The notes under the pieces were generated by a model. The model did not search any database and was not told the origin of the DNA. It was given only the letters and a program-made list of their open reading frames with translations. The position numbers and the translations under genes are program-made. This document shows, one piece after another, positions 13,601-36,687 of a DNA stretch of 41,160 nucleotides; position 1 is the stretch's first letter, and every line of letters starts with the position of its first letter. Source of the DNA: a virus (lineage: Duplodnaviria; Caudoviricetes); the IMG/VR virus record IMGVR_UViG_3300017910_000891, positions 1 to 41,160 of that record; one strand, written 5' to 3'.

Positions 13601-16564
13601 GGCCTCCTGTTCGGTCAGACCATCGACGACATTATCGACGGTGACGATCTCTACGTTGCAGCGGTCGACGTTCTTGAGCGTGCAGGCGTCAGCCAAGGCC
13701 AAGCTCGCAACATCATTAACCAGCGCCTGCGCACGGCTGGATACGATGGCGTTGCCGGGACGATGGACGACGAAGGCGTTGCTCGCCCGATCTTCGCAAT
13801 CTTTGACGGAGACAACGTGCGCAGCCTGCGTGCCCCGGACCTGCCTGTCGACCCAGACGACGAGACCGTCCTGAAGTCCGGTGTTGGCGCAGCGTTCTGG
13901 GAGCTTGTCTCGTCCGAGACGAAACTACCACCAACCAGCGCAGGCGCAGTCGAAGACTATCTGCGAGCCAACTCCGGTGTATCCGAGACGATGGCGGGCG
14001 TGGCCTCTGGCTTGGTCACTGGGTCTCGGACGCGCGTTCTCAAGCCTCTCAGCAAAATCCTGAGTTCCGCGCTCGACGGTGCTGAGCAACGGCTCAACAA
14101 GGCCGGCATGACGACGCTGGCTAAGAAGTTCAACAACTTCACGGCGGAGCACACGAGAGTTCTTGGCCGCACGATCATGCCAATCCTCGAAGGTGACGAC
14201 GAGGTGGTCGGTCTCAACAAATTACCGGGAATGCCAGACAACCTGCTGTCCAAGGTGGCCAACTACATGACCACGTCTTGGCAGGGCAACAAGGTACTGG
14301 CCAAGCAGTTCAACGAGCCTGCCCCGCTACGCCGTATCCGCGCAGCAATGATCGACCCATCCAAGGCGCCGAACCTTGCGAACGCACAAGAGCGGCAGAT
14401 GTACACGCGGTTGCGCAAGGTGTTCCGAAAGCAGCTCGACCGGATGAAAGCCGCTGGCGTACTGGTGGGGGATCTAGGCCCAGACTATTTCCCGCAAGTC
14501 TGGAACCCTGAGATCATTCGCCGAGACGAGCAAGGCTTTAAGAGCCTGATGTTTGCTTATATCCAGCAAGAACGAAGCAAGTCGGGTAGCCCAATCAGCA
14601 ATGAAGACGCGCAAGCCTTCGCCGACAAGATCTTTGCCAACATTACCGGCAACGACACTGGCGTGGTCGACTTCGATGCCGACATGCCGAAAGCCCTGAT
14701 CGACAGCGCGGACTTCAGCCGACTGCTGAAGTTCCACCAAGCAGCCCCCGAGCTGCTGGAGAGCGCACAGAAGTATCAGGAGCAGTCGCTCATGGCGACC
14801 GTCGTCCGGTACTTCGACGAGACGGAGCGCGTGATCCAGCAGGCTGAATACTTCGGCGTCAACGGCCACGGCATCATGGACTATGCGAAGGCCGCACAAG
14901 AAGGGCGCAACGGCATCATCGAACTGCTGGCCACCGACAAGCACTTCTCGACGGGCCGTTACGCTGTCGGACCTGACGGTGCTGAGCGTATGAACAAGAC
15001 CATTGGCATCTCCATGCTGCCGGAAGGTCTGGCTGTTAAAGCTGCCGATAAAGCAATGGCAATGGCCAAGAAAGACATCGAAGGCGCACGTCAGTACCTG
15101 TACGACGTTTACCCCGCAGACACGACGCCGATTACCTACCGACGCCGGGTCGATGCCATCATCGACGCCCTGAAGGACTACAAGGGACAAGAGGCAAACA
15201 TTTCCCGAGACGACATGATGGCCGCCGAAGGTTACAGCCGGCTGATTATGCGCAAGCCAGTGAACCGAGCTTCGCAATCCATGCGGAACGCGTCTCGGAA
15301 CATACGCGCCTTCCAAAACGTGACCCTGTTGTCCTACGCAACCATCACCTCGTTCTCCGACTTGGCCATGCCAATCATCCGCAGCGGCGATTTCAAGGCT
15401 GCGTGGCAAGGATGGTCGAAGTACCTCACCAACAAGGAGTACCGAGACAGCATCCGTCGGATCGGCATTGCAATGGATGGCATCACGCACGAGCGAATGG
15501 CGCAGCTGGTCGGCGACGGCAGCAACATCATCCAGTCGACGTTCTTTAAAATGACTGGCCTCACGCCTTGGACGAACATGCAACGGGCTGGCGCCGCAGC
15601 CATCGCCGAGCATGGCCTCCGTCACCACATGGAGGCGCTGAAGAAGATGGGATCGGGGGCCAAGGGGTCGCCAGCCTACAACCGTCACGCCCGTGAGTTG
15701 ATTAAGTTCGGCATGACTTTTGATCCGTCTCAGCCCCTGCCTCGTGTGGGCGGCGGGACAGATGCGGACGCCATGTTCGAGCGGGCCATCATTCGCTTCA
15801 CGGATGCAACGATCTTCAGCCCCAAGCCACACGACATGCCGTTGTTCGCCAACAGTCCGTGGGGTGCGATGATCTACCAGCTCAAGTCCTTTGCCATCAT
15901 GTACCAGCGCTTCGCCATGGAAATGCTGAAGGACGAGCCGGTCGAAGCGTGGAAGGCTATCCGAGCGGGTGACTTCGGGACGGCGGCCCAGCACCTCAAG
16001 AAGCCAGCGCTGCTGATGACGCTCGGCCCAGCGGTTGCTGCTGGGTCCATCGCCACCAAGGATCTGGTGATGGCTCGGGGCGGCGAAGAAGGGCAGAGCT
16101 TCGGCATCAACCAGACGACCAAACTCAGCAACACCTTTGGCCCCGAGTGGTCAGACGAGCAGCTGGACGCCATGGCCGGATGGTACATGCAGTCCTTCAT
16201 GCAGGCAGGCGGTCTCGGCCTGCTTGGCGACATCTTCCGCACGACGGCAGAGCAGGCCGACAACGGAGCCTACGGCCAACAGCGGATTGCCGAGACAATC
16301 CTTGGCCCGACGCTCGGCCTGTTCAACGACACGCTGAAGGTTGCCGAGGGCATCAAGGACGCCGCCGGAGAAGCCGCAGGCGGCGAAGGCAGCCCCGGCA
16401 AGCAGCGTCAGGCAATCCGCGAGGTCGTCGGGCGCACGCCATTGCTTGGCGGCAACCGGGCGCTCAAGGAAGCCTTGGTCGACCTGAAACCGGTTGAAGG
16501 CAAGTCCAGCGGCGTCGGCGGAAGCGCCTACAAGCGCACAAACTACGGCACCACGGAGTTCTAA
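7673..16564 (+). CDS. Giant internal virion (polyvalent-type) protein with zincin HExxH and ART-like regions
   Basis: 2963 aa, SD GGAGA. HELGH at about 10973-10987 with downstream QEVFA; GMFGVATYVSSDP...GYDGV...FAIFDGDNVRS region; YFPQVWN motif and hydrophobic C-terminal helices typical of the largest podovirus ejection protein. Confidence 0.8.
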   Translation: MFSKTSLLGSSTLSSALPTTYADIRGEDIMTDPRVIADVRKEFEDRGIYIADDDELMRKFYDDQTFSKLNATIGSFNAYQRAEAATPESRARQARLRDAHNKLPAFYQKGGVGVGTALPSFGKALLFDPINLVGGFVGASGKGVAKAAQVARAAGGSPTLAAARAGAMRGAAYEGVLGAGFGAAYSVGNQNVDIKLGLQDQFSYGQLAADVAGEAAFSAGIGAVAGGVGGAIFKGGRRLDPDVAPEDNAGAPATVTPSASPVLSQTPEQYQDALLEDAAQAADAGNFDLAEDLLEERAESMAAQFDLEGFGDEALPETATPAPEIETTPATGETTATVDTSETAPAPAAAETTTEQASEAPTTDLPTVRRHDPRAISPKAKKLAKENGYDISVDRKTGTFNDPQVEAFVQARPGKKVHNGLTVTELKQIFGDSEPAAAPAETPTSVAAKVVAQKNEAEAKTGQTGTPEDTAANAERAAAEAGVDEADAAQIAEAMAADEEWQAEFLGRYLSLAPDQQQLVDARVEELKDKDGFLKAVEKAMNEVDRAGTIEGTTPKRVADRTAKAAGTMATGDVNAGRSLTINIDPTTQRQTMKPGRYQKIFQKAGNMPTFNSVKRSYAEMLARKSLGREGAITGRSLLGKQMDVDKRKLDDLTDDEKARYNSLVEGFNAEGKTNPEKRALNQLNRELKQSMAAATSLDDQGRVTGELSAENGLVTYVTMGRMPAATKDGFNQMVNPGSVVIFDAELNQSFAGDTYEEARDVLSRVLVHRERTSVEKKAALDADARAIQQFEDKNGVTRYDYGATAMGQPDPMLSTPASKGDLRLVAEYVGPDAEAPSVRIRQASDSNIAKGGNFRNMLGMPRNGQEMGANWNPDHWNLYYLPKVKGVSNKQKVLADMVKDMEPIKTSKDDLPLQRKSYDDKIAGAPLFRDIADLELPAPETDQEQALFKSYLDNGQSFATFQDLMTREAELWRVGLKGGNAGQLIQRASMFYGYMSRVLPQGITFPQATRAAAYKALESMYKDADTETLQMMLRLVTGVKTDGAPTLVKGVDMPRDVGGTYSPAAVQAREVGASQYKFRSSGEITLNTESGFHPMHALLHELGHWSTDYVLTPRIKASWFTELAQYIDDNGNLRMDRLGLGGAPEGLDVGANFQEVFANLFTKWASDKVFRKSLQNANLTFFEKLGTIFRRLFDFFMSGGVPEKFDPIFSNILDDTERLIYRITDMQNPPKDKTAQAIQSRFADLEDIKGEWTTAIEQGSALEGMAIKTLGYLHSLTNTKAQNKWIARRKGGTTRGNNTGTFVPIDEIVFQIRKAISDINDTVLVIDTSKSRNEYGYNPAADELPFITDEFSPEKYERIANAWTGDENGPGVIQDILFDIEVVLEQQFDDFASGQSIIRRRKNMNDAEGRPSKGRQESKKKKAGKGRWARLANSAYYHTNANKPQETLEKEAVNFNVPVDASVEELASLLDLTNRRGPLPSRDRAIAQLIKRKLDAEPVDEGVEKYTGGEDRQGLMSLMLKAYHDNDMAEFAKYRSAYRSMGGKENVVPQDGMVDNLRLTEIAENGINEDGVSLGARPQIQDLQRRMNVRRDEETTATMRQLFFRTMNMVGATNTGDEPAREAVLAPLFGRQPDANGPALTEASDMFRQLRTQMRQIAQGLKGGEDPIRDVALLAIRGSNDMGLERINGRPADEFMADAVVQLLSGRTTFDRVFPDSPDRATFLRRARNYMDRTGYLVNGLIASPALRKKYPGLTVYGDMFANNKRPITAMHGVGNAVAPEVAADAFSEVLRHGTARLRNGIQIFTKGAFNLTPDGLPTALYVPVRRGRKVDNQGRAQTNGMFGVATYVSSDPVGALRTKGGDIPARTGFEDEAEDIMERVASIDRSILQARGQQAMAETSAEATALRDKLSSLLDQREGLLEKLDATGRTFDDVAPVVTRAQAIANFQQNIQYTPDSPIVGLLMDAISSADQRAGLLFGQTIDDIIDGDDLYVAAVDVLERAGVSQGQARNIINQRLRTAGYDGVAGTMDDEGVARPIFAIFDGDNVRSLRAPDLPVDPDDETVLKSGVGAAFWELVSSETKLPPTSAGAVEDYLRANSGVSETMAGVASGLVTGSRTRVLKPLSKILSSALDGAEQRLNKAGMTTLAKKFNNFTAEHTRVLGRTIMPILEGDDEVVGLNKLPGMPDNLLSKVANYMTTSWQGNKVLAKQFNEPAPLRRIRAAMIDPSKAPNLANAQERQMYTRLRKVFRKQLDRMKAAGVLVGDLGPDYFPQVWNPEIIRRDEQGFKSLMFAYIQQERSKSGSPISNEDAQAFADKIFANITGNDTGVVDFDADMPKALIDSADFSRLLKFHQAAPELLESAQKYQEQSLMATVVRYFDETERVIQQAEYFGVNGHGIMDYAKAAQEGRNGIIELLATDKHFSTGRYAVGPDGAERMNKTIGISMLPEGLAVKAADKAMAMAKKDIEGARQYLYDVYPADTTPITYRRRVDAIIDALKDYKGQEANISRDDMMAAEGYSRLIMRKPVNRASQSMRNASRNIRAFQNVTLLSYATITSFSDLAMPIIRSGDFKAAWQGWSKYLTNKEYRDSIRRIGIAMDGITHERMAQLVGDGSNIIQSTFFKMTGLTPWTNMQRAGAAAIAEHGLRHHMEALKKMGSGAKGSPAYNRHARELIKFGMTFDPSQPLPRVGGGTDADAMFERAIIRFTDATIFSPKPHDMPLFANSPWGAMIYQLKSFAIMYQRFAMEMLKDEPVEAWKAIRAGDFGTAAQHLKKPALLMTLGPAVAAGSIATKDLVMARGGEEGQSFGINQTTKLSNTFGPEWSDEQLDAMAGWYMQSFMQAGGLGLLGDIFRTTAEQADNGAYGQQRIAETILGPTLGLFNDTLKVAEGIKDAAGEAAGGEGSPGKQRQAIREVVGRTPLLGGNRALKEALVDLKPVEGKSSGVGGSAYKRTNYGTTEF

Positions 16565-24849: not shown

Positions 24850-25071
24850 CTAATTAGCCCGCCGCAAGCGGCTCACCAAAAACTTGGCCGCCTCACCTTC
24901 GGGCGTAGCTTGCGCGATCACGTCCACCGCAGCTTCCAGCGCGTCGTCCCGCACTGGACCGTCCAAGCCATCGAGTGCGTCATATAGCAGCGCAATGGCG
25001 GAACAAGCTGTGAACATGGCGGGGGAAATACCAAAAACCGTTGCATCTTCTGCAACATTGTTCTTAATCAA
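24850..25071 (-). CDS. Hypothetical protein
   Basis: 73 aa, TTG start with SD GAGGA. Its 5' end overlaps the putative promoter of the candidate sRNA on the opposite strand. Confidence 0.45.
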   Translation of the reverse strand: MIKNNVAEDATVFGISPAMFTACSAIALLYDALDGLDGPVRDDALEAAVDVIAQATPEGEAAKFLVSRLRRAN

Positions 25072-25073
25072 TC

Positions 25074-25152
25074 TGTCGTCCTCACTCGAAGACGGGCGAT
25101 GGCGTGCTCCTGCACGTCGGGGCGGTTTTGCTGTGGTTGGTTGAGCCGCCCC
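25074..25152 (+). ncRNA. Candidate antisense sRNA complementary to the early-gene leader motif
   Basis: Three consecutive hairpins whose G-U pairs form only on the + strand. Loops UCCU and UGCUGUGGUUGGUU. Upstream TTGCAT (25041)-N16/17-CTTAAT(C). Confidence 0.55.
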
Positions 25153-25262
25153 TCACACCCGCAATTTATTGGCTCGTTATTTGAACCCTATGCGCTGACA
25201 TTTTACAACCCCCGTTTTTTACTCCATCCCGACTACACTGTTGGGGACAACTACACAGGAAA

Positions 25263-25393
25263 CTCCACAAAGTTCACGGAAAAATAGGGGTGCAATCATT
25301 TCCATCATGGTCCATCGAGGCCTAGAAAACCGTTACAGTTCAGCAGCTTAGGAAGTCGCCCCCAAGGTTTTCGCTCCACATACTTGACGGAAA
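25263..25393. other. Putative attP region
   Basis: AT-richer intergenic DNA upstream of int. Direct repeats CTCCACAAAGTTCACGGAAA (25263-25282) and CTCCACATACTTGACGGAAA (25374-25393), 17/20 identical. IHF-like TTCAGCAGCTTA between them. Confidence 0.55.
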
Positions 25394-25429
25394 CAACTCC
25401 ACCAGCTAGGTGTAAAAAATGTTGAGCGA
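25384..25429 (+). promoter_or_regulatory. Putative integrase promoter with operator-like site
   Basis: TTGACG (25384)-N17-TAGGTG; GGTGTAAAAAATGTTGAGCGA (25409-25429) contains a perfect operator half-site. Confidence 0.5.
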
Positions 25430-25473
25430 GTTAAACTTTTTCAGCATTCCGACACTTAACCGGAGGAAAACAC

Positions 25474-26571
25474 ATGCCAGCCAACCACCTAGAGCATGTC
25501 TACAAGTCCAAGACCGGCACCTACACAGCCCGTCTGCGCGTCCCAGCTGACGTCCAACCCATCATCAAGAAGACCGAGCTGCACCAATCACTGCGCACCA
25601 AGAGCAAGGCGGAGGCAGCAGCCCTCGCCCCCGCAGTCGTGCGCCAGCTACAGAATGAGATTGAGGTGGCCCGTGGCATCCCCAGCGCGACACCGGAAGG
25701 CACGCCCCTTTTGGATGCGGCTGAGTTTTTGCCCAACCCCCACTATCGCCTCGTCCTGCAAGACCTGTCCAACCACTCTGGCTGCGACCAAATCGAACAG
25801 CTCACCTTCGATGCGTGGCAGCGTTGGTGCTATCACCGTGAGGATTTGGTCCCCAAGAGGTCGACCTACACCATCCGCAACGAGACGACGCTAGTCCGAT
25901 CCGCGATCCTCAAGACCATGGCCGCCAAGCGCCGGCCCTACGACCCGGCCATACTCACCACACCCAAGTGGCGGCCACCAACCCGAGACGAGCGGCGTGC
26001 TCGCCGGCAAGCCAACAGCCCGTACACGCTCGAACGATGGCAACATCTCTACGACCGTATGGACCGCAACACCGACATGCAACGGGCCTGTTGCGCCATC
26101 TTTGCGCTTGGCCTGTTCACGGGCGCACGCATCTCGGAAATCTCCAACATGCAAGCAGACCATCTGACAGACGACCTGTGGACCATTCCTCGCAGCAAAA
26201 ATCTGTCGGGCGAGCGCGTCGTCCCCCTGATACCCTTGGCCCAGCACGTCATCAGTCAGCAGCGTCCCGGCCCGGACGGGTTTGTGTTTCCACGAATAAA
26301 CTTGGACTGGAAAATACAGGCGGCCCGGTTCAGCGCACGCGTCAACTTCTATCTGACACGAGCCGGAGCTACGCCATTCGAGACGATGCACTCAACGCGC
26401 TCGACATTTCGGACACTACTACCTCGCTACGCGCAGTCGCCAGAAGGTACAGTCGATATGATTGTGGGGCACTCGCCCAGCGGCCACGTCAGCTCGGCCT
26501 ACTACCGGGCCAGCCTTGAAGACTGTATCCAGCTCATGAGCCATTACCGCCCGGAAGTGCGTGTTGATTAA
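25474..26571 (+). CDS. int: Tyrosine integrase
   Basis: N-terminal YTARLRVPADVQPIIKKTELHQSLRTK (DUF6538-like). Catalytic R (GARISE), HSTR, VGH and Y. SD GGAGG. Confidence 0.92.
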   Translation: MPANHLEHVYKSKTGTYTARLRVPADVQPIIKKTELHQSLRTKSKAEAAALAPAVVRQLQNEIEVARGIPSATPEGTPLLDAAEFLPNPHYRLVLQDLSNHSGCDQIEQLTFDAWQRWCYHREDLVPKRSTYTIRNETTLVRSAILKTMAAKRRPYDPAILTTPKWRPPTRDERRARRQANSPYTLERWQHLYDRMDRNTDMQRACCAIFALGLFTGARISEISNMQADHLTDDLWTIPRSKNLSGERVVPLIPLAQHVISQQRPGPDGFVFPRINLDWKIQAARFSARVNFYLTRAGATPFETMHSTRSTFRTLLPRYAQSPEGTVDMIVGHSPSGHVSSAYYRASLEDCIQLMSHYRPEVRVD

Positions 26572-26887
26572 CGACGCGCCCACGCTTCTTGGCCCACGCC
26601 ACAACTTCGTCGGGGACAAACAGGTGTTTGCCCCTGACCTTGCGGCTTGGCAGCCCCTGCTCGGAACGCATCCGCGCAACCGTCCGAATGTTCTGCACGC
26701 CCAGCACGGCGCACACGTCCCGAGACGACAGCAAGCTGGCCTCCGCCTCGACCAGCGGCTCCGGCGGCCTTAGCTCCTCCGCCAGCTCCAGCGTTCCACC
26801 CGACATCAAGTACGCGTACTTCATGTCCGCCAGCTCCACAGCCTTCCTTCGCTCGTCCGCAGTCATGTGTTCCCAGAGCACGCTCAT
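26534..26887 (-). CDS. Excisionase-like winged-HTH protein
   Basis: LLSSRDVCAVLGVQNIRTVARMRSEQGLPSRKVRGKHLFVPDEVVAW; convergent on int with overlapping 3' ends. Confidence 0.75.
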   Translation of the reverse strand: MSVLWEHMTADERRKAVELADMKYAYLMSGGTLELAEELRPPEPLVEAEASLLSSRDVCAVLGVQNIRTVARMRSEQGLPSRKVRGKHLFVPDEVVAWAKKRGRVVNQHALPGGNGS

Positions 26888-27153
26888 CCCAGCGCCCCCC
26901 TCACAACCTCCGCCTTAACGCCCAGCGCCTGTGCCAGCTCAGCCAGCTCGCTTTCACTCGCCGATCTCAGCCCGTCCGCCATACGGCGCTTTAGCTCGTC
27001 GGCACGCCTGTCTCGGCCCATCTCCACGTACAAGCCACGCCCGTCCAGCAGCGCAGACACACGCTCCAACGTCACCCGAACCATTGGCCCCAGTGCCTCA
27101 TCGCTCTCCAGCAGATCACGCAGCATGTTCGCTGCGACAAGATTAGTTTGCAT
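26884..27153 (-). CDS. Hypothetical protein
   Basis: 89 aa from ATG 27153; ATGA-coupled to the xis-like gene. Confidence 0.6.
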   Translation of the reverse strand: MQTNLVAANMLRDLLESDEALGPMVRVTLERVSALLDGRGLYVEMGRDRRADELKRRMADGLRSASESELAELAQALGVKAEVVRGALG

Positions 27154-27184
27154 AGCAAAACACCCCTGCAAGTTGTCTTGCAAG

Positions 27185-27211
27185 GGTGTCAAAAAAGTTT
27201 ACACCTGTCAA
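27185..27211 (-). promoter_or_regulatory. Promoter with operator filling the -35/-10 spacer
   Basis: Minus-strand TTGACA (27206-27211) directly abuts GGTGTCAAAAAAGTTTACACC (27185-27205), the best copy of the motif. Confidence 0.7.
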
Positions 27212-27216
27212 GCCGA

Positions 27217-27672
27217 CTACTCGGTCACGAGCAGCCCCGGCTTCACTGGTGCAATCAACGGCCTTAGTTCATCTTCGACAGCGGGATCCGTCTCGATCAT
27301 ATAGGTCCGTCCGAAGCCGCCCGTAGCGGCCTTGTATTCAGTGTCGGAGCCTTGGGCCAGAAACTTCTGACCCATGACGCGCAGTTCGCCACGCTTGGTG
27401 ACGCCCATCTTCTTACCGACCTGTCGCAAATGGGTTTTAACGGTCTCCGCAGAGATACCACCCATGATCGTCGCTGTGATGTCAGCATCCAAGCCGTACA
27501 CCAAGCTCTGCAACGCCGCATGTTGTCTTGCGGTAAGGGCAGTCAACTCAGGCACTTCTGCCCCAGCTAGACCACCCCTTCCTTTGGCTTCCATACGCAT
27601 CACGATTTGCGTAAGTCCTTCGACAGCTAAGCGGAGAGATTGCAGCTCACGGACAACGTCCTCGCTATCCAT
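27217..27672 (-). CDS. LuxR/GerE-type HTH regulator
   Basis: LTARQHAALQSLVYG...ISAETVKTHLRQVGKKMGVTKRGEL. Start re-called at ATG 27672 (SD GGAGG). Short N-terminal coiled coil; no autoinducer or receiver domain. Confidence 0.8.
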   Translation of the reverse strand: MDSEDVVRELQSLRLAVEGLTQIVMRMEAKGRGGLAGAEVPELTALTARQHAALQSLVYGLDADITATIMGGISAETVKTHLRQVGKKMGVTKRGELRVMGQKFLAQGSDTEYKAATGGFGRTYMIETDPAVEDELRPLIAPVKPGLLVTE

Positions 27673-27718
27673 GCTCACCTCCAGTTCACGCGCCTTTTTA
27701 AGTAAGCGCTCAAACAAA

Positions 27719-27745
27719 CCTGTCAAAAAACTTTACAACCGTCAA
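27719..27745 (-). promoter_or_regulatory. Promoter with operator filling the spacer
   Basis: Minus-strand TTGACG (27740-27745) abuts CCTGTCAAAAAACTTTACAAC (27719-27739); same layout as the 27185 site. Confidence 0.65.
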
Positions 27746-27766
27746 TGCGGATTTTGCTAATTATTA

Positions 27767-28582
27767 TTACAATTTCAGCACGGCTGCCCTGCTATCACCC
27801 GTGGCCACGTGACTGTACCGCATGACCATGGCCAACGAACTATGGCCCAGCATGTCCGCAATCACACGCAAGCTCACGCCCTGCCGCACCAGCTCACTCG
27901 CGAACGTATGCCGACAATCGTGCGGCTTGAAGTCAGTCATGCCCAAGCCCACCACAACTGGCCACCAGCGATGGCCGAACGACACCGTGGACCACTCCCG
28001 ACCAGACGGCGCAGGGAACACACGGTCTTGGCCCTCCGTCCCCTCCACGTATTGCCATACCCGATCATGCAAAGGCACGATCCTGTGTCGCATCCCACGG
28101 CCACCCTTCAAGGTGCCAAGGTTGATCGTCCGGTCTTCGTAGTCCACCTGTCCCGGCCTCAAGCCCATCAGCTCGCCCTTGCGGGCGCCCGTAAAGAACA
28201 TAGCCGTGACAATCGGCTGTATGTCAGGCGGGCACGCCTCGATGAAGGCGTCCCTTTCCTTGGCCGACAGCCACCGCTGCCGTCCCGAACCCTCACGAGG
28301 CCGGTCACAGTACACGGGCTGCTCCCCGTGCATCTTGCGATAGTAGTTCACTATCCCCTTCACGGTGTTGATCTCCCTACGCTGACCAGCGGCACCCTGC
28401 CCCCGGTCAACGTAGCCAGCGATGTCAGCCCCAGACAACTCCATCACCTTGGCGCTGCCCATCTTGTCCCGAAAACGCTCGGCAAAGTACACGGTCGTCT
28501 TGCCAATAGGCCCATGCCTCAACTTGGCTTGCACCCAGAAGTCGACGGCGTCCTCAACGGTTGGCTTCCTTGGTCTACCCAC
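27767..28582 (-). CDS. Second tyrosine recombinase (no arm-binding domain)
   Basis: TGARKGEL, TLKG, HDCRHTFAS, MLGH and RYSH give a complete catalytic set. Start re-called at GTG 28582 (SD GGGGAG). Confidence 0.9.
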   Translation of the reverse strand: MGRPRKPTVEDAVDFWVQAKLRHGPIGKTTVYFAERFRDKMGSAKVMELSGADIAGYVDRGQGAAGQRREINTVKGIVNYYRKMHGEQPVYCDRPREGSGRQRWLSAKERDAFIEACPPDIQPIVTAMFFTGARKGELMGLRPGQVDYEDRTINLGTLKGGRGMRHRIVPLHDRVWQYVEGTEGQDRVFPAPSGREWSTVSFGHRWWPVVVGLGMTDFKPHDCRHTFASELVRQGVSLRVIADMLGHSSLAMVMRYSHVATGDSRAAVLKL

Positions 28583-28832
28583 GCGCTTGCTCCCTTTTCT
28601 GCATGTCACGAACCCACGGCCAGCTCGCGAGCAGGTACTCCCCGTACCCGCTCTCGACCTCGGCAATCAGCTCGGCCATCCGTTCCGGGTTGCGCATGGT
28701 CACGCGCCTTTCCTTGGCCAGCATCCCGACCTTCACCCAGAAACAATCCGGCCACCACCGCTCGGTCAGCCGATACCAGCTCGCCCGCACCACAATGGCG
28801 GGCGGCTGCTTCTTCCTGCGAAAGAACATCAC
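28575..28832 (-). CDS. Hypothetical protein
   Basis: GTG/ATG start with SD AAGGAG; coupled overlaps on both sides. Confidence 0.55.
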   Translation of the reverse strand: MMFFRRKKQPPAIVVRASWYRLTERWWPDCFWVKVGMLAKERRVTMRNPERMAELIAEVESGYGEYLLASWPWVRDMQKREQARG

Positions 28833-29307: not shown

Positions 29308-29534
29308 TGCACAATCTCCTTGTCCATCAGGCGCTCCCACGCCTCGATGGCACCCACTCGGGCACCATCCAAAAATTCTTCGGAAACAGCCCCGCTGCGT
29401 CTCAACACGAGGCTCAATGTCTGGCGGATGAAGTGCCACTTGCCGTCTCCATCCAGATGGGGGGTAGGCTCGTAGCCCACCCCCTGTGCTGCCAGCAGCG
29501 CACGCTGCCGCCCGACGCCGTAGTCGGCGCTCAC
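29304..29534 (-). CDS. Hypothetical protein
   Basis: 76 aa, GTG start with SD GGAGGA; coupled. Confidence 0.55.
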   Translation of the reverse strand: MSADYGVGRQRALLAAQGVGYEPTPHLDGDGKWHFIRQTLSLVLRRSGAVSEEFLDGARVGAIEAWERLMDKEIVQ

Positions 29535-30109
29535 TCAAAGTCCTCCCAGCTGTCGACGCCGTGGTCGATCACCAGCTGTTTGGCCCACGGCAACGGCTCC
29601 ATCCGACCAATCACGTAGTCGATCACGCCCCACGTCAGATAGCACTTGCCACTCAGCACGTAGCGCACCTGCACGATGGTCTTCCCACCCTCGGTCAGAT
29701 ACAAATTAGCCTCTGCATCACTGCCGTTGGGTGACTGGCCCTCGGCATTGCCAAGCCACCAGCCCTTGATGCGCAGCTTCGGCTGATCGTTGCGCTGCAA
29801 CATGAACGTCTCGGGCGTAGCGCTTGGCCACCACTCGGGGTGGTCGGCCTTCGGCTCGGGCACAGGCACGGGCAACGTCTCGTCGCCAAGCACCATGAAC
29901 TCCTCAATCTTGGCCCAGTTTTTCTCCCACGGTACGGTGGTGCCCACCTCCCAGTGGCCGATGGCAGGGGCGCTCATGCCGAACCATTCGGCGCAGCGTT
30001 TTTGTGTCCAGCCAAGGCTTCGACGCTTTGACTTGAACTGCTCACGGTTAAAGATCATCGGCACTTTGCCGTTGCGAACGGGGGTGTTTTCTTGAATGCT
30101 TTTTTGCAT
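29531..30109 (-). CDS. XRE-family HTH protein with a C-terminal domain of unknown function
   Basis: RRSLGWTQKRCAEWFGMSAPAIGHWEVG HTH, PVPVPEP linker, beta-rich C-terminal domain with no S24 peptidase motif. Confidence 0.75.
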   Translation of the reverse strand: MQKSIQENTPVRNGKVPMIFNREQFKSKRRSLGWTQKRCAEWFGMSAPAIGHWEVGTTVPWEKNWAKIEEFMVLGDETLPVPVPEPKADHPEWWPSATPETFMLQRNDQPKLRIKGWWLGNAEGQSPNGSDAEANLYLTEGGKTIVQVRYVLSGKCYLTWGVIDYVIGRMEPLPWAKQLVIDHGVDSWEDFE

Positions 30110-30136
30110 TGGTTTTTCCTGATAGTGGTTGGTTGA

Positions 30137-31834
30137 TTACGCAGCCGCACGGGCCACGACGTTGCGCCCAATGAGCGCTTTACACAGCTCGCCCGTGACC
30201 GTGCGCGGAAGCTCGGCAAGGTCATGCAGAACTGCATAATCGGAGTAGTAGTTGGACACCGAACTGTCTTGCAGTCCGATGCCGAACACACTGAATGATG
30301 GGTCCATCTCCAGCCGCTTGACCGCAGCCTTGGTCGCCTCGTGCAAACGACCGTCTCGGTTGCTGGCCGGGATGCCGTCGCTCAGCACAATCAGAACCTT
30401 GCGCCGCTCCTGTCGCTGTCGGAGCATGGCCTCGGCGCTAATGATCGCATCGGCATCGGCGTTCTCAGCAAACGCCATACGGCTCAGCGCAGTCAGCCCG
30501 AACCAAGCACGCTCGCTCGGCGTGTCGAAGCCCTTGAACTGGTACGTGTACGCAGGGTCACGCTGGCCCTTGAACTTAAATCGGTCGTCGGACCACCCCT
30601 CAACGCTGCCCGTCAGCGCAGCCGCTCGCTCGAAGTTGAGGCTGTCGAACCCAATCACAGCATTCGGCACGCTGGCCCGATCACAAACGGTACTCAAGAC
30701 GATGGCTGTCTCGGCTGCCTGTTCGATCTTCTTGTCGTACTTCATGGATCCCGAGCAATCCACCAACAGCAGCACCGCCGTGTCCAGATCCATGCCGCCC
30801 TCTTTGCGGCGCCACACGGCCTCCTGCCCAGCAACAGCAGCCACCAGCCGCCGACTGTCCAGCCGCCCACTGGTGTGGCCGCCCTGCCAGACGCTTTCCG
30901 TCTCGGTCATCAGCGCCGCTTGCACCCGGCCCAGCATAGGCCCGACCATGTTGCGCAGCTTGCGCTTGATCTTGCCCCACTTGGCCCGGTCTACAGCGTC
31001 AGGCACCTTGCCTTTCCAGCCACGCTCGAAGCTACCCGTGTGTGACAGGTGATGGTCGTCAGGCAGCTGCAAGAAATCCTCCTGCCGCTCCAGCATGATG
31101 TGCTTGTCCCACCGTTTGTCGGGCACGTAGGCGCTGCCATCGTCGCCCTCGACCTCGGGCACGGCCACAGCTTTCTTGGCCTCCCACTCGCCCTGCTCGT
31201 CTTCTTCCTTGTCGTCGTCACCCGGCCACGTATCAGCCAGCACACGCTCGGCCACGTCCAGCACCTCGTCCGCCGTCTCGCACGACATGGCCTCATCAAC
31301 CCAGCGCTCGCACGCATCCTTGGTCTCGTCGGTCAGGCAGTCATAGGCACGCTGCGCCTCGGGGCAATCGTAGCCAGCACGCAACCGGCCCAGCAACGTC
31401 AGCCCGTAGCCCACGTCTCGCATGTCGACGTTGCCGCCCGCCTCCATAGCGTTGGCCGCCTCACGCGCAGTCACGTTGACCACGGCTTCAAGGTTCTTCT
31501 TGGCCCCCGGAAAGTCCTCGATGACCAAGCGCTCCTCGCGCAAATCCTCGATGGCGTTTGTCATTTCCTTGAGCGGCATCCCACCCTTGTCGTGGGCACG
31601 CTGCATCAAGTCTTCCGGCGTGTATCGACAGTGGCCAGCCTCGTGGTCGATATAGCCACGCATGGCACGCTGCGTCTCCTCGTTGACCTCGCCGTTCATG
31701 TCGAAGCCGGGGACAACAATCGTCTTGTGGTCCGTATAAGCCTTGTCTCCACCGACGGAGACGGCAACGCCGCCTCCAAGGGTGGAACCCGTAGTGCTCA
31801 GCTCGTGAGCAAACAGTCCGCTGTTCTTGTTCAT
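30137..31834 (-). CDS. CobT-like protein (HExxH + von Willebrand A domain)
   Basis: DHEAGH...NAIED N-terminal domain, acidic linker, GRLDSRRL, MIDAS DCSGS, IVLSDG. Confidence 0.85.
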   Translation of the reverse strand: MNKNSGLFAHELSTTGSTLGGGVAVSVGGDKAYTDHKTIVVPGFDMNGEVNEETQRAMRGYIDHEAGHCRYTPEDLMQRAHDKGGMPLKEMTNAIEDLREERLVIEDFPGAKKNLEAVVNVTAREAANAMEAGGNVDMRDVGYGLTLLGRLRAGYDCPEAQRAYDCLTDETKDACERWVDEAMSCETADEVLDVAERVLADTWPGDDDKEEDEQGEWEAKKAVAVPEVEGDDGSAYVPDKRWDKHIMLERQEDFLQLPDDHHLSHTGSFERGWKGKVPDAVDRAKWGKIKRKLRNMVGPMLGRVQAALMTETESVWQGGHTSGRLDSRRLVAAVAGQEAVWRRKEGGMDLDTAVLLLVDCSGSMKYDKKIEQAAETAIVLSTVCDRASVPNAVIGFDSLNFERAAALTGSVEGWSDDRFKFKGQRDPAYTYQFKGFDTPSERAWFGLTALSRMAFAENADADAIISAEAMLRQRQERRKVLIVLSDGIPASNRDGRLHEATKAAVKRLEMDPSFSVFGIGLQDSSVSNYYSDYAVLHDLAELPRTVTGELCKALIGRNVVARAAA

Positions 31835-31859
31835 AACGTGTACTCCTGTGGTTGGTTGA

Positions 31860-33428
31860 TTAGATGCGGTCGTACAGACCTTTGATCGTGGCCGCCTCGG
31901 CCTCGGGGCATCGGTTGAGCATGACCCAGTCGAAGGCCAGCTTGAGCGAGTTATCCTTGCCCGTGGCCTCCAAGAACGATGCCGTTGCGGTCCACTCCAA
32001 CATCGTCCGTGGGGTCAGTGGCATTGACGTCTCGGCCAGCTTGAACGCCTTGCTGTGCAGCTCGAAGTAAGCCGCCATGTGCTCGGCTTGCTCGGGGCTT
32101 GCGCCCTTGTTGGCCACCAGCTTCTTCGTCTCGGCTTTGCTCAGGTAATCGACCTCGGCCCAGATCGTGAAGCGATCAAGCATGGCGCCGTTAAGGACGC
32201 GCGTCCCAGCGTAGCTGCCGTGCTCGTCACCTCGGCCCTTGGTGTTAGCCGTGGCGATCAGGCGGAACCACGAGTTGGGCTTGACCTCACGGCCACCATC
32301 CTCGGTGATGATAAGTCCACGGCCCTCAAGCGGGCGCTGCACAGCAAACAGGATGTCAGGACGACCCGCATCGAACTCGTCCAAGATCATCACGTAACCA
32401 GCCTCCATCGCTTGAGGCAGGATGCCATCCACAAACTCACTGGTGCCGTCGCTCAGCGTGTCTCGGCCAATCAGATCCATGCGACCCATGTCGCTGTCCA
32501 TGTTGACACGAGCCACCGGCCAGCCCAGCAGGGCGCACACCTGCTCGATCAGCGTCGTCTTGCCCGTGCCAGTGTGGCCCGTCAGCATGGCCCGCTTGTC
32601 ACCGACCAAAGAGTACAGCACCTGAGCCAGCAGCTCGGGACGGAACTGATAGTCCTCGATGACAGCGGGCACGTCTGGATGCTCACCGTCCCACTGGAAG
32701 ACAGGCACATCGAAGTCCAGCACCTTGGCCCGGCTGCCGAAGACCGTCTGCGCCGAGACCATCTTGACCTCCGTACAGGCGGGGAATGTTGGCCCCTTGC
32801 GCTCGGGCTTGGCCTCGCCCAGCGTGATGGTCACACCGCCGCCCGTGGCAGGACGCTTCTCGGCGGCCTCCAGAGCCTCGGTGAGACCCGTCACGGCCCC
32901 CCGGATATACTCGTAGGCCGGCAAGCCAAAGCCGCTCAGCACGCTGTCCAGCGCCTGTTGCTTGGCCGTGTCCACCGCTGGCAGATCGAGCGTCGGTGCA
33001 GCAGTCGGCGCAGCCGCCGGTGCAGCCGGAACCAAGCCCAGCTCGTCTGCCATCACGTCGTCGATTGGCATGGCGTCTCGGTCGATGGTGCCGTCTTCGA
33101 CTGTCTCCTCCCTAGCGCCCCAGAGAATGCAGTCGTTCTGTCGCTCCGCTTCGTTCGAGTGGGCGTTGTGGGTGGTGTGATAAATTTCGACGTAGTTCTC
33201 GATGGTTGAGCGTAGTTGGCCCATGGTCATTACGTTGACGATGGCCGACCACGTAGGCCGCTCAGCCTTTTCACGGTACTCGTCCATGGCTGTGCAGGTG
33301 ATGTCGTCGAAGTCGAAGCCGGAGACCAGTCTCTTTACAGTGGCACGCCACAGGCCGCGCTGGTCCATGGTGCCGTAGCTGGTGGTGTTAAGGACGGATG
33401 AAAGGGTGGTTGGTTGAATGGTAGACAT
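31860..33428 (-). CDS. CobS/MoxR-like AAA+ ATPase
   Basis: GHTGTGKT, ILDEFD, IATANT, LDRF and TPR motifs; adjacent to its vWA partner. Confidence 0.88.
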   Translation of the reverse strand: MSTIQPTTLSSVLNTTSYGTMDQRGLWRATVKRLVSGFDFDDITCTAMDEYREKAERPTWSAIVNVMTMGQLRSTIENYVEIYHTTHNAHSNEAERQNDCILWGAREETVEDGTIDRDAMPIDDVMADELGLVPAAPAAAPTAAPTLDLPAVDTAKQQALDSVLSGFGLPAYEYIRGAVTGLTEALEAAEKRPATGGGVTITLGEAKPERKGPTFPACTEVKMVSAQTVFGSRAKVLDFDVPVFQWDGEHPDVPAVIEDYQFRPELLAQVLYSLVGDKRAMLTGHTGTGKTTLIEQVCALLGWPVARVNMDSDMGRMDLIGRDTLSDGTSEFVDGILPQAMEAGYVMILDEFDAGRPDILFAVQRPLEGRGLIITEDGGREVKPNSWFRLIATANTKGRGDEHGSYAGTRVLNGAMLDRFTIWAEVDYLSKAETKKLVANKGASPEQAEHMAAYFELHSKAFKLAETSMPLTPRTMLEWTATASFLEATGKDNSLKLAFDWVMLNRCPEAEAATIKGLYDRI

Positions 33429-33443
33429 TAGCTGTTCTCCTGT

Positions 33444-33492
33444 TGAGCTAACAAGTTGTACACTATTTTGACATTTTCCCCACCGCTGTCAA
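33444..33492 (-). promoter_or_regulatory. Promoter for the cobS/cobT-like operon
   Basis: Minus-strand TTGACA (33487-33492)-N16-CAAAAT; inverted TTGACA on + at 33468; degenerate operator at 33444-33464. Confidence 0.55.
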
Positions 33493-33501
33493 TAGGGAAA
33501 C

Positions 33502-33527
33502 AAAAAAGGCCCGCCGAAGCGAGCCTT
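33502..33527 (-). terminator. Rho-independent terminator
   Basis: AAGGCTCGC-TTCG-GCGGGCCTT-TTTT on the minus strand, after the small-gene cluster. Confidence 0.85.
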
Positions 33528-33556
33528 GTTGGGGTTGGGGTTGGTTGGTTGGGGGG

Positions 33557-33814
33557 TTAGTCGTCGGCTTCCTCGTCGTCGGCTTCCTCCTCGTGCTCCT
33601 CGACCTCGACGACTTCGATCAGGTCAGCCGGGACGCCGTCGATGTAGGCGCAGTTGATCTCAGCGCTGCCCCAAGGCAGTCGCTCGATCTCCTCCTGTGC
33701 CTCCCGCTCGAACATCTCCCGTGCCTCGGCCTCCGTCTCGGCCTCGATGTCCAGCGTGACGGTCAGGTCAACGCTGGCGCTGGTGTCCACCTTGATGGTG
33801 TAAAGGGCTGTCAT
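33557..33814 (-). CDS. Very acidic small protein, DpnD/PcfM-like pattern
   Basis: ATG 33814 after motif + AGGAG; 85 aa, about one third D/E; LDIEAETEAEAREM. Confidence 0.75.
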   Translation of the reverse strand: MTALYTIKVDTSASVDLTVTLDIEAETEAEAREMFEREAQEEIERLPWGSAEINCAYIDGVPADLIEVVEVEEHEEEADDEEADD

Positions 33815-33836
33815 GTTGGTTCTCCTGTGTGGTTGG

Positions 33837-34118
33837 TTAGTAAAGGTCCAGCTCGTCACGCTCGGCAGCCGCAGCGAGGCGCTGCTCTGCTCGGAACCTG
33901 TCGAAGTTGAAGCCGCTGTTGCGTGCCGTGGCCAGCGCCTCAAGGGCGTGGGCAAGGTCTTGGCCAGCCTCGTAGCGGTCGTAATGGTCGTCGTTCATGG
34001 CGACGATCTCCACCTCGAAGGCTGCCAAGTGGTCTGACCCACGGTCGGCATAAGCCCAGATCGTGGCCTCATGCTTGTTGTCCAAGCGCTCCCGCTTGAT
34101 AAGCACTCGCTCGCTCAT
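33837..34118 (-). CDS. Hypothetical early protein
   Basis: MSERVLIKRERL..., SD GGAGGA; ATGA-coupled. Confidence 0.7.
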   Translation of the reverse strand: MSERVLIKRERLDNKHEATIWAYADRGSDHLAAFEVEIVAMNDDHYDRYEAGQDLAHALEALATARNSGFNFDRFRAEQRLAAAAERDELDLY

Positions 34119-34309
34119 GCTGCGTCCTCCTTGATGGCTGTGACACGGTACTCTGTCTCGGGTTCGAGGTTCTTGTCCGGGAACTCCACCTCCCAGTCCG
34201 TTAGTTTGCTCGCTGCCTCCAGCGCCTCGGCCTTGCTGCCTGCCTCGATGACCGTCTCGGCGTAGCTGCACTCGATCCAGCGCCGTTCGATTTCAACTCG
34301 GTACTTCAT
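34115..34309 (-). CDS. Small protein, DpnD/PcfM-like pattern
   Basis: MKYRVEIERRWIECSYAETVIEAGSKAEALEAA; ATG 34309 after motif + AGGAG. Confidence 0.7.
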   Translation of the reverse strand: MKYRVEIERRWIECSYAETVIEAGSKAEALEAASKLTDWEVEFPDKNLEPETEYRVTAIKEDAA

Positions 34310-34331
34310 GGCGTTACTCCTGTGTGGTTGG

Positions 34332-34781
34332 TTAGCTGTACGTCGGGCGGCGTTCGGGCCAGCCCGTGAGGTCTTGGTCAAAGCGGATGGAGAAGTGAAA
34401 CGCGCTAGACTGAGGGTCGAACCGTTCGCGTAGCTCCTGCCTAAGCGTGGTGGCCTCCGCCAACGTCGTGCGGAACCAGTGGTCCATCGGCTCGCCGTAG
34501 TCGTACCACCAGCCGCCTTCCTCGGGTCCGCCGTAGGCTTGGCCCGTCTCGTACATCTGCACGACAAAGCCGCGCTCGACCCGGCGCTCCAGCTCGCAGA
34601 TGGCCTGTCTCGCCAGCTCGTTGGCGTGTGTCCGCCAGTGGTGGCTTGGCCACTCGTCCTCCTGCGTGTCGCCAAAGTCGGTGTTCCATACCCGGTAGCG
34701 AAGCTGCCCGTCTTGCAGCAGCACGATGTCGAAGTCGATGGCAACGCCGCCGATCTCAATTTTGGTTATGAGGTGTGTCAT
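34332..34781 (-). CDS. Hypothetical early protein
   Basis: MTHLITKIEIGG...AYGGPEEGGWWYDYG...WPERRPTYS; ATG 34781 after motif + AGGAG. Confidence 0.75.
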   Translation of the reverse strand: MTHLITKIEIGGVAIDFDIVLLQDGQLRYRVWNTDFGDTQEDEWPSHHWRTHANELARQAICELERRVERGFVVQMYETGQAYGGPEEGGWWYDYGEPMDHWFRTTLAEATTLRQELRERFDPQSSAFHFSIRFDQDLTGWPERRPTYS

Positions 34782-34809
34782 GGGTGTAAACTCCTGTGTG
34801 GTTGGTTGG

Positions 34810-35238
34810 TTAGACTGGTTCGCAGCGCCACGTCCCGTCGTCAAGCCGGCGCTCGTGCTCGGTGCTCTCGCCGTTCTCCTCCCAGTCGAGACGAGACGTC
34901 CAGTGGGCGGCGTCCTTGCGTGCCAGCTCGAAGGCTAGCTCCTCCGCTTCGACCTCGTCCCCTGCCGAGACCTCGACCTCGGCGATGTACTCGACCGTGC
35001 GCAGCTGCGTGAGGCCGACCTTGAACTTACGGACAGGCGGCCACTGCGGTTCCTTCGTGGCGTCTTGGCCAAGCGTATGGCAGATAGATTGCTGACGGAG
35101 GCGCACACGGGTCTTTAAAACCTCGGAGCCGCCATACTCCTTTATCGTGTCGTGCAAGACGTCGAGCATACACCACGCGAGGCAAAGCTCCTCGGCCATG
35201 TCTGTGAACTGTTCTTCGGTCAGGTTTTCGTAGTTCAT
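34810..35238 (-). CDS. Hypothetical early protein with a DpnD/PcfM-like C-terminal half
   Basis: KFKVGLTQLRTVEYIAEVEVSAGDEVEAEELAF; motif + AGGAG leader. Confidence 0.7.
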   Translation of the reverse strand: MNYENLTEEQFTDMAEELCLAWCMLDVLHDTIKEYGGSEVLKTRVRLRQQSICHTLGQDATKEPQWPPVRKFKVGLTQLRTVEYIAEVEVSAGDEVEAEELAFELARKDAAHWTSRLDWEENGESTEHERRLDDGTWRCEPV

Positions 35239-35262
35239 GTTGGTTACTCCTGTGGTTGGTTG

Positions 35263-35550
35263 TTATTGGCCAGCGCCATAGCGTCGGCACTGAGCCGCTA
35301 CGAACTCCAGTATTTCGTAGTCGTGGCTAATCTTGTTCACGTCGTCAGCAAACTCCTCGAACAACTGGCCCCACGCCTCTGACAGTCTGGCGTCCGGGTT
35401 GTTGAGGAACTTGCGAGCCATCTCAAAGTAGACGAGCGCCTCTACTGAATGGCCGTAGATGTCGTCGTAGAACTCGTTGACGAGCCGGTCGCTCAGCGCC
35501 TCCCGGTGGCGTCTTTCCTGCTCTCGTATGTCGATGTCTGTGTCAGTCAT
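35263..35550 (-). CDS. Hypothetical acidic early protein
   Basis: 95 aa; motif + AGGAG leader. Confidence 0.7.
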   Translation of the reverse strand: MTDTDIDIREQERRHREALSDRLVNEFYDDIYGHSVEALVYFEMARKFLNNPDARLSEAWGQLFEEFADDVNKISHDYEILEFVAAQCRRYGAGQ

Positions 35551-35574
35551 GTTAGTTCTCCTGTGGTTGGTTGG

Positions 35575-35787
35575 TTAGCGTGGGTTGGCTGCGAGCCAAG
35601 TGTCGAGATCGGCAGCAGCAATGGCGTGTTGGCCTCTCTTGTACGTCTTGCCAGTGATCTGGCTCGCCAGCTCCAGTGCCTTCGTGCGAGACAGCCTGCT
35701 GTGGCTCATGCCTTTGGCCATGAGCTTGACGTGGAAGCGTAGGAACGTGGCCTGCACGCGCAGGTCAGTGGGGTTGTCGATCATCAT
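35575..35787 (-). CDS. Hypothetical basic early protein
   Basis: 70 aa; SD GAGGAG. Confidence 0.65.
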   Translation of the reverse strand: MMIDNPTDLRVQATFLRFHVKLMAKGMSHSRLSRTKALELASQITGKTYKRGQHAIAAADLDTWLAANPR

Positions 35788-35799
35788 GGGTGTGGCTCC

Positions 35800-35964
35800 T
35801 CATGCGAAGGTGTGGGTGATGTCGTTGCGAAGGACGTCGATGCCTGCCGTGGACTTGAGCCGCCACTTCTGTGCGGCTGCCTTGGCTGCCTCGTAGGTGG
35901 TCGAAGCCTCGACGACGAGCGTGCCCTTGCGAGCGTGGACGGCGGTGAATGAGTAAACTTTCAT
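35800..35964 (-). CDS. Hypothetical early protein
   Basis: MKVYSFTAVHARKG...; leader CAGGAGAACCAACCATG. Confidence 0.65.
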   Translation of the reverse strand: MKVYSFTAVHARKGTLVVEASTTYEAAKAAAQKWRLKSTAGIDVLRNDITHTFA

Positions 35965-35978
35965 GGTTGGTTCTCCTG

Positions 35979-36062
35979 TCAGATGATGCGTGTGAGGAAG
36001 ACGATGGCGCAGACGAGCGCCATCGCGATGAGGAACTGGGGTTCGGTGAACAGCGGGTTCAC
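35979..36062 (-). CDS. Small single-pass membrane peptide
   Basis: GTGA-coupled start; MNPLFTEPQFLIAMALVCAIVFLTRII (27 aa). Confidence 0.45.
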   Translation of the reverse strand: MNPLFTEPQFLIAMALVCAIVFLTRII

Positions 36063-36352
36063 GCCTCGTAAGCCTTGCGTGCGAACTCGCTGCAAAGCGC
36101 GTGGAACTCGCCGGCGAGTGCACTGTTGATGGCTATCGAGCCGAACCGTGCGCGTCGTGGGTAGAACTCCCGTATGAGGGCGGTCCACATGACGTGGGCG
36201 TCCGTCCGCCACTTGGGCGCCGTCTTGCGGAGCTTGCCTTTGTTGGCCCCTCGCGTGGCGAAGCAGGCAGCGTAGGCTGCGGACAGTCGTTCGATCATGG
36301 CCTCGTCGCTCGTGAGCGTGGAAGCGGCTCGTTGGCCTAGTTTGTTGAGCAT
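36059..36352 (-). CDS. Hypothetical early protein
   Basis: 97 aa; motif + GAGGA leader. Confidence 0.65.
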   Translation of the reverse strand: MLNKLGQRAASTLTSDEAMIERLSAAYAACFATRGANKGKLRKTAPKWRTDAHVMWTALIREFYPRRARFGSIAINSALAGEFHALCSEFARKAYEA

Positions 36353-36375
36353 GGTGCGTGTCCTCGTGTGGTTGG

Positions 36376-36660
36376 TTAGTCGTTGGCCGTCATGGTCTCG
36401 ACGATGGCGTTTTGCAGCCTCACGATGGCGCTGCGTGCCTCCTCGACCAGATCGTGCATGGCCTCTCGGTCAGCGCTCGCTGCATCAAGCGCCTCGCGAA
36501 CGTCGTCCATGTGCTGGTAGTTGCGGCTGTGAAGGACGTTGGTGATAAGCCCCTCGCGAGCACCTTCGACGGTCAGGAGCGCTTCCTTGCAGCCGAGAAA
36601 CGCTGCGTAGAAGTCTTCGCGGGAGTTGCCGTTGAGGCCGATGCGTGCGTGGATTTTCAT
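36376..36660 (-). CDS. Hypothetical early protein
   Basis: MKIHARIGLNGNSREDF...HSRNYQ; ATG 36660 after motif + AAGGA. Confidence 0.7.
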   Translation of the reverse strand: MKIHARIGLNGNSREDFYAAFLGCKEALLTVEGAREGLITNVLHSRNYQHMDDVREALDAASADREAMHDLVEEARSAIVRLQNAIVETMTAND

Positions 36661-36687
36661 GAGAATTTTCCTTGTGGTTGGTTGTGC

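Follow-up and report, generated by a model that had tools for sequence, protein, structure and literature searches.

A candidate antisense RNA in a CRP-810-type phage whose hairpin loop mirrors a start-site tag of the early genes

By sequence comparison, positions 25074-25152 of a marine phage hold a real, conserved, structured element that is tied to a real and maintained tag at the starts of the phage's early genes. We consider it moderately probable that this element is the gene of a + strand antisense RNA, C4/GcvB-like in its action, that represses about 12 phage genes. Because the loop of its third hairpin is the exact mirror of their start tag, a small RNA that switches the tagged genes off together is likely.

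The window, a virus record of 41,160 nt (41 kb), comes from a temperate marine phage of the CRP-810 type. Its terminase is 51% identical to the homologue of Roseobacter phage CRP-810, and the two have CobS/CobT, integrase, Prim-Pol, Sak4 and Cas4-like homologues in common, with a similar gene order. According to the accessible text of PMC11288001, CRP-810 is temperate and integrates at tRNA-Thr, and most members of its family encode an integrase. In the window, the - strand carries the early genes, beginning at 37271 and including, at descending coordinates, cobS, cobT, the gene of an XRE-type HTH protein, int2 and the genes of a LuxR and an excisionase-like protein; int1 (DUF6538, 25474-26571) is on the + strand, as are the genes for replication and the virion. 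CRP-810, the sole complete relative, is alike in gene order and homology but differs in having no tag, no int1 and no match to the RNA covariance model. By this comparison, the tag and element are confined to a subclade of CRP-810-type phages. Single-protein scans of viral contigs found nothing. We also observed a 2963-aa protein (window 7673-16564) with no PHROG or Pfam match, parts of which are related to three consecutive virion-region genes of CRP-810. Among the relatives, L284, a 7-kb phage fragment, had been placed in a Flavobacteriales metagenome bin and is probably mis-binned, and in L101 (71-6271) small genes are preceded by a promoter-like repeat (TATGTTAGG..TAGGGTATATAG), which has 12 copies.

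The coordinates and letters of the element were as given in a preliminary description, and the + strand folds into three hairpins, with hairpin B and its CUCCUG confirmed in place (Table 1). The fold of the + strand reached -43.6 kcal/mol (z -4.66; 0/200 shuffles as good) and that of the - strand -31.2 kcal/mol (z -2.60). None of 1002 windows of 82 nt, tiled over the phage in steps of 41 nt, reached the fold energy of the element. The 14-nt loop first ascribed to hairpin C holds as a pairing sequence, in that CUGUGGUUGGUUGA (25131-25144) is a 14/14 complement of the cobT leader, but not as an open loop, since it is mostly closed by predicted G-U pairs; only UGGU is predicted to be open, and opening the 8-nt core would cost 4.2 kcal/mol. 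Similarly, hairpin B does carry the anti-Shine-Dalgarno (anti-SD) CUCCUG, but exposes only UCCU in the window phage. An intrinsic terminator at the element is ruled out by the absence of a U-tract after hairpin C on both strands, as had been claimed, and no + strand terminator was found after hairpin C. An Rfam scan of the window at the gathering score gave no match for the element, and the C4 model at E up to 10 gave none in window 24850-25480 or in L281 11100-11680. Eight DNA contig runs showed low-depth variants only, with insertions at 25118, 25125 and 25129, all outside the seed.

Table 1. Positions of the candidate RNA, its parts, neighboring sites and the tag copies in the window
Feature	Position	Strand	Remark
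Candidate small RNA	25074..25152	+	hairpins A 25075-25100, B 25101-25118, C 25119-25152; ends inferred
Invariant 8-nt seed GUGGUUGG, hairpin C	25133..25140	+	in 5/5 variants and the 12 best in-trans duplexes; extends to 25131-25144 in the window
Anti-Shine-Dalgarno CUCCUG, hairpin B	25107..25112	+	accessory at best in the window phage
Weak promoter-like site (TTGCAT, 16-18 nt, CTTAATCA)	25041..25070	+	within the coding start of ORF 24850-25071
73-aa ORF	24850..25071	-	ribosome site 25079-25083 overlapped by hairpin A; 68% identical homologue in L284
Five ACTMCAC-type direct repeats, two clusters	25232..25402		between element and int1; similar repeats in L284, L281, L279
Target-like site, int1 codons 2-5	25478..25488	+	CAACCAC kept in L284, L279; absent in L281
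Tag, leader of XRE-type HTH gene (29531-30109)	30123..30135	-	word count and predicted pairing
Tag, cobT-like leader	31846..31859	-	14/14 complement of loop
Tag, first codons of cobS-like gene	33404..33416	-	CAACCAC in 6/6 clade cobS copies
Degenerate tag directly before intrinsic-terminator-like hairpin	33535..33547	-	likewise in L007, L083, L102-L105, L281
Tag, leader of gene starting 33814	33827..33839	-	word match
Tag, leader of gene starting 34309	34322..34334	-	word match
Tag, leader of gene starting 34781	34796..34808	-	word match
Tag, leader of gene starting 35238	35250..35262	-	word match
Tag, leader of gene starting 35550	35561..35573	-	word match
Near-copy of tag between SD and start of gene 35964	35963..35972	-	-7.8 kcal/mol; ends in G-U pair
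Tag, leader of gene starting 36352	36366..36378	-	word match
Tag, leader of gene starting 36660	36672..36684	-	word match

There are 11 copies of the tag word CAACCAC on the early (-) strand, nine in early leaders, one in the first codons of cobS and one in the element, so that every copy but that of the element lies beside an early start codon (10/11). Of the five copies on the + strand, one falls in the opening codons of int1. A leader motif in 10 early genes had been described; 10 of the 15 early-strand starts between 37271 and 30109 indeed carry CAACCAC, but it is a leader motif in only nine, as cobS has it in codons 5-8. One further start has a near copy that overlaps it, and four are without the tag. 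We found 13 matches to the leader 13-mer (≤2 mismatches) versus 1.29 expected (0/100 shuffles), and 10 tag copies within 30001-36800 versus 0.8 in local shuffles. Tags are placed from -28 to about +20 relative to the start codons. When 7-mers were counted de novo, CAACCAC/AACCACA ranked first among start-region words in both L083 and L104, and the tag was present at ≥5 starts in just 3 of 32 sequence sets, namely the window, L083 and L104. Where it stands ahead of terminator hairpins, the tag possibly has a role in termination. A distant CRP-810-type phage (L088 2204-15712) has another start word, GAGCAAAGA-like, at ~10 starts, where it lies before the SD, after the SD or in the first codons.

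To score pairing, we used a script that combined bulge-free helices with opening costs over 37 start regions, listed by a simple caller of our own in which at least one start (int2) is mis-set and starts 37271 and 36911 are missing. The predicted net binding via loop C was -7.8 to -14.2 kcal/mol at 12 of the 37 regions; 24 were no better than -6.2 kcal/mol, and the remaining one is a cis overlap. As in GcvB, a G/U-rich seed is thus complementary to many sites, here nine in leaders and three others. Eleven of the 12 predicted in-trans targets are on the strand opposite the element, 5-11.5 kb away. Used as a base-pairing regulator, the - strand reached -3.4 kcal/mol at best and was ruled out. 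For L281, the pairing of its own RNA goes down to 8 bp, and its leader tags score -5.6 to -10.6; the window RNA does better on the same tags (-10.8 to -11.9).

A two-loop model had been put forward, with the loops of hairpins B and C acting together. Both halves are present by sequence in 4/5 variants, but hairpin B is absent from all of the best in-trans duplexes in the window phage, where it showed no cognate preference (z -0.7, p 0.23). Hairpin B of L281 fits several L281 ribosome sites along 9-12 nt (z -3.4, p 0.002 versus 500 flank shuffles), a result that is the best of 28 tests and ~0.06 when corrected. Hairpin B of L314 fits L083 (p 0.026); both contig names bear one sample number. Given a significant hairpin B fit in L281 and none in the window, the balance between loops B and C may differ by lineage.

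We gathered eight loci by aligning the neighboring p318 protein, and all four that reach the stretch between p318 and int1 hold the element (L279, L281, L282 and L284, of which L281 and L282 are near-identical, leaving three distinct sequences). A second pattern, consisting of the seed, the 5' arm and the anti-SD with the 3' arm left out, gave 43 matches, four of them in close relatives. This pattern newly found L314, whose 3' arm is perfectly complementary. The first element pattern had no close relative among the matches listed (116 loci), and covariance model R1, run over 63 sources, returned only its training sequences and two weak leader matches. The element occupies the same position in L284, L279, L281/L282 and L314, and GUGGUUGG is invariant across the window and the four other variants (5/5).

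The outer stem of hairpin C has seven Watson-Crick pairs in each of the five variants, with four different stem sequences and 3/7 pairs changed on both sides, in a register that was set by script and is paired by construction. For that reason, the informative control is the count of stems around all GUGGUUGG copies: such a stem is present at 2/55 copies in clade loci, both being elements, and at 1/164 in other loci. Tool-based covariation on automatic alignments was not significant (40.7% of cells paired, 66/500 shuffles as high), and a second run gave a positive covariation term. Because the automatic alignments are visibly out of register, the covariation claim rests on the script-set register, and pair counts from those alignments speak neither for nor against it. 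Stem compensation, which had been suggested as a check, appears as the both-side changes in our own register but not as significance in the automatic alignments. The stem of hairpin B differs in every variant, while its loop, CUCC(U), is kept in 4/5 and lost in L284; the sequence of hairpin A is not conserved. Relatives keep the tag and the loop together, rather than the motif without the loop. The covariation of loop and leader that had been looked for did not appear in L281, the only other fragment with both the element and early leaders: its loop flanks changed and most of its leaders did not. Co-change of seed and tag cannot be seen because the seed is invariant.

Tag sites move but persist among orthologues. 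In cobS, all six clade copies have CAACCAC in the first codons, with minority codons (CAA 0.36 of Gln, CCA 0.26 of Pro). For cobT, the window and L102 have a leader tag, L083 and L104 have the tag within codons 2-4, and L103 has no more than a near copy. For the HTH gene, the tag is a leader site in the window and in L281, and a coding-start site in L083 and in L104. Where cobT and HTH orthologues have the tag among their opening codons, it is read in differing frames. Three of four int1 copies have it. Small RNAs can repress from the 5' UTR or a five-codon window, according to the accessible text of PMC9486967, and a shift between leader and first codons is, as judged from these orthologues, the behavior of a translation-blocking target whose sites are maintained.

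The promoter assigned to the element, TTGCAT-N16/17-CTTAAT(C), did not stand up well: it has 7/12 consensus letters, and a promoter scan did not call it. A loose promoter pattern (TT..-17/18-TA) occurs just upstream on the + strand in 4/5 variants, which are two related pairs, and on the - strand in 1/5. The z score of the + strand is lower than that of the - strand in 4/5 variants. Because the motif itself forces G-U pairs, we repeated the fold with the motif held open and observed that the + strand was better by 7 (window), 10 (L281) and 2 (L314) kcal/mol, with a tie in L284 and L279. In the same setting the stems still leaned on G-U pairs of the + strand, as had been noted (five stacked G-U pairs on + versus one on -). 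Overall, these folding models tilt the strand of the element towards +.

The 73-aa ORF on the early strand is supported by strain variation, as 10/12 substitutions (run X5) fall at third codon positions; an Atlas search with it gave matches that were all under 0.9. Since a real ORF starts there, transcription of the early strand must extend over hairpin A at the least. Hairpin A overlaps the SD of the ORF in the window, L284 and L281, but this overlap is not conserved, because the predicted 5' end lies downstream of the SD on the + strand in L279 and L314. In L279 (10920-11375), L281 (10760-11235) and L314 (190-650), two small early-strand ORFs replace the 73-aa ORF, the first with a conserved C-terminal half.

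Could the early (-) strand be the one that works? We regard this, the strongest of the alternatives, as unlikely. The - strand RNA, as a structured leader of the 73-aa ORF or as a decoy, would offer two loops, one fully open with CAACCAACCAC and one with AGGAG, to an RNA-binding protein that also binds the tags at all early starts; RegA/CsrA-like logic is the model. All 11 early-strand tag copies, the element's too, read in one sense, and on the - strand the motif sits in an open loop of 8-20 nt with a real ORF downstream. The strands tie in 2/5 variants once the motif is set aside, yet G-U pairs outside the motif favor + by 7-10 kcal/mol in the window and L281, and the loose promoter matches also lie mostly on +. 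A protein repressor would account just as well for tag turnover between leader and coding start, but no CsrA or other RNA-binding family was found among 41 + 20 (partly overlapping) ORF translations compared with Pfam, from a window shorter than the 57.7-kb CRP-810 genome. The eight one-mismatch tags point both ways: 5/8 are C-to-T, which a G in the RNA tolerates, and 0/8 are A-to-G, although pairing would tolerate that change as well. CsrB/RsmZ decoy RNAs carry GGA motifs in the loops of several hairpins and partner with CsrA, whereas the - strand here has a single AGGA loop in 4/5 variants, none in L284, and no CsrA family among the scanned phage ORFs.

That nothing acts in trans at all seems very unlikely to us. 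The tag would then be a mere C/A-rich translation enhancer or a cassette recombination repeat, and the element a captured leader copy that serves RNA processing, stability or att architecture. ACA motifs do enhance translation (PMC3879156, accessible text), the tag mostly comes after a stop codon and also stands before terminators, gene content between tags varies among relatives, and other CRP-810-type phages have repeated start words of their own, as in L088, where no mirrored hairpin was found in the part examined. However, such a role leaves unexplained both the exact invariance of the 8-mer in a loop whose stem and flanks change and the reappearance of the tag in the first codons once it is lost from the leader. 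A mainly cis-acting element, an antisense RNA or riboregulator of the overlapping small ORF(s) with leader matches that are a by-product of shared ribosome-site ancestry, is highly improbable in our estimate: the invariant loop C has no cis target, and the overlap of hairpin A with the SD, present in the window, L284 and L281 and by construction the top duplex (-16.8), is not conserved. Hairpin B of L281 does repeat 11 nt of that ORF's ribosome site, as a cis role would have it.

The preliminary description had placed the element next to attP. A tRNA search of the window found none, and no tRNA-type att site, leaving only the ACTMCAC-type repeats, which we take to resemble integrase arm sites. 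On account of this resemblance, attP may lie between the two repeat clusters, in 25268-25373; no att core was identified at 25232..25402, and no att junction was present in the eight DNA contig runs. In this region (25474-28700), an excisionase-like gene and a LuxR gene are flanked by two tyrosine integrase genes that face each other. The int1 product had no match in the phage collection and is conserved in L279, L281 and L284. If attP does lie between the element and int1, the element would sit just inside one prophage end, separated from early-strand read-through. We consider an integration-coupled switch of this kind distinctly unlikely, in which a single RNA represses the integrase along with a dozen early genes, and integrating itself locks in repression and immunity. 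In the free circle, early-strand read-through over attP would make a mirror RNA that has the tag in an open loop and soaks up the sRNA; upon integration, the read-through would be cut at attP and the sRNA freed.

The suggestion that the RNA stands in for a CI repressor is weakened by the presence of repressor-type genes, an XRE-type HTH (phrog_3, E 3.9e-5), a LuxR-family gene (E 2e-8) and a Cro-like HTH (E 0.0012), together with a palindrome that is a likely operator. A 19-bp palindrome has five copies (≤2 mismatches) versus 0.22 expected. In the form GTGTMAA-N5-TTKACAC (≤3 mismatches) it is found at seven intergenic promoter regions (19236, 22010, 25410, 27186, 27720, 33456 and 37538), and it recurs in L279, L281, L284, L314 and L083. 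It is likely to be an operator for LuxR or an HTH protein. Because these regulators exist, the RNA need not replace a repressor.

As an antisense RNA, the element would work most like C4 and GcvB. The C4 antisense RNA of P1/P7 (Rfam RF01695) has about 77 nt in three stem-loops, one loop lying partly over the ribosome site and one pairing upstream for specificity, and acts in lysogeny and immunity (as described in PMC5320573); icd and ant, its targets, share its operon (as described in PMC8198154). By sequence, an anti-RBS loop and an upstream loop occur in 4/5 variants of the element, which has about 12 predicted targets, 11/12 of them on the opposite strand, in place of one operon. No icd/ant family was found among the scanned window ORFs. 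The P1 stem that closes the C4 cloverleaf is absent from the centroid fold of the window, and unrelated closing stems are predicted only in L281 and L314. RNase P processing is a further feature of C4. There is no Rfam covariance match of the element to C4 or to GcvB. GcvB is Hfq-dependent and has a U-tailed terminator; in the window, no U-tract follows hairpin C. GcvB acts on many targets, pairing just upstream of the SD and silencing ACA-containing enhancers (according to the accessible text of PMC3879156). The likeness is in multi-target pairing by C/A-rich sites, with the element's seed complementary to many leaders; the difference is that GcvB is chromosomal and controls amino-acid transport genes, whereas the element has its seed in a hairpin loop and would target the phage's own genes.

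The P4 CI RNA arises by processing of the very leader that it controls, and its pairing with seqA and seqC leads to premature termination (accessible text of PMC4825925). RNA-based immunity would be common to both, and the tags before terminator hairpins hint at a possible effect on termination; the sites of the element are, however, dispersed and mostly at start codons, and no pairing of the seqA/seqC kind within an own leader was seen. P22 sar, lambda OOP and aQ are phage antisense RNAs that bias lysis versus lysogeny through translation block or decay, each with one main target gene as described in the accessible text of PMC12197685, whereas here one seed matches many starts in trans.

For the + strand antisense RNA, we propose the following course. 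The RNA would be made from the weak promoter at 25041-25070 or by + strand read-through, and the loop of hairpin C would pair with the CCAACCAC tag by the start codons, resulting in a joint translation block of about a dozen genes. Pairing would be nucleated by the open UGGU tip, and the weak G-U part of the loop would then unzip to give 8-14 bp. The duplex may hide the C/A-rich ribosome-loading region, similar to GcvB, or the first codons. Hairpin B may add SD pairing in some lineages, similar to the second loop of C4, and hairpin A would cover, in cis, the ribosome site of the overlapping 73-aa ORF. The most likely use is silencing of int1 and the early genes, both in the lysogen and when related phages come in, atop a protein repressor/operator system; an early-to-late shut-off in lytic growth is nearly as likely.

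The phage regulatory RNAs described in the accessible texts of PMC12197685, PMC8198154 and PMC4825925 each have a single phage gene or operon, or host genes, as their targets. Our literature search, in a collection with few subscription papers, gave no example of a phage sRNA directed against many early genes of the same phage; a table of 38 uncharacterised phage sRNAs in the review PMC12197685 might bear on the novelty of multiple targets. If the proposal is true, the element would be a regulon-level RNA repressor for which a standard 8-nt tag addresses the whole early gene set, and new genes would join the regulon simply by gaining the tag. It would also offer a function for the repeated leader words of phage early regions, which are usually unexplained.
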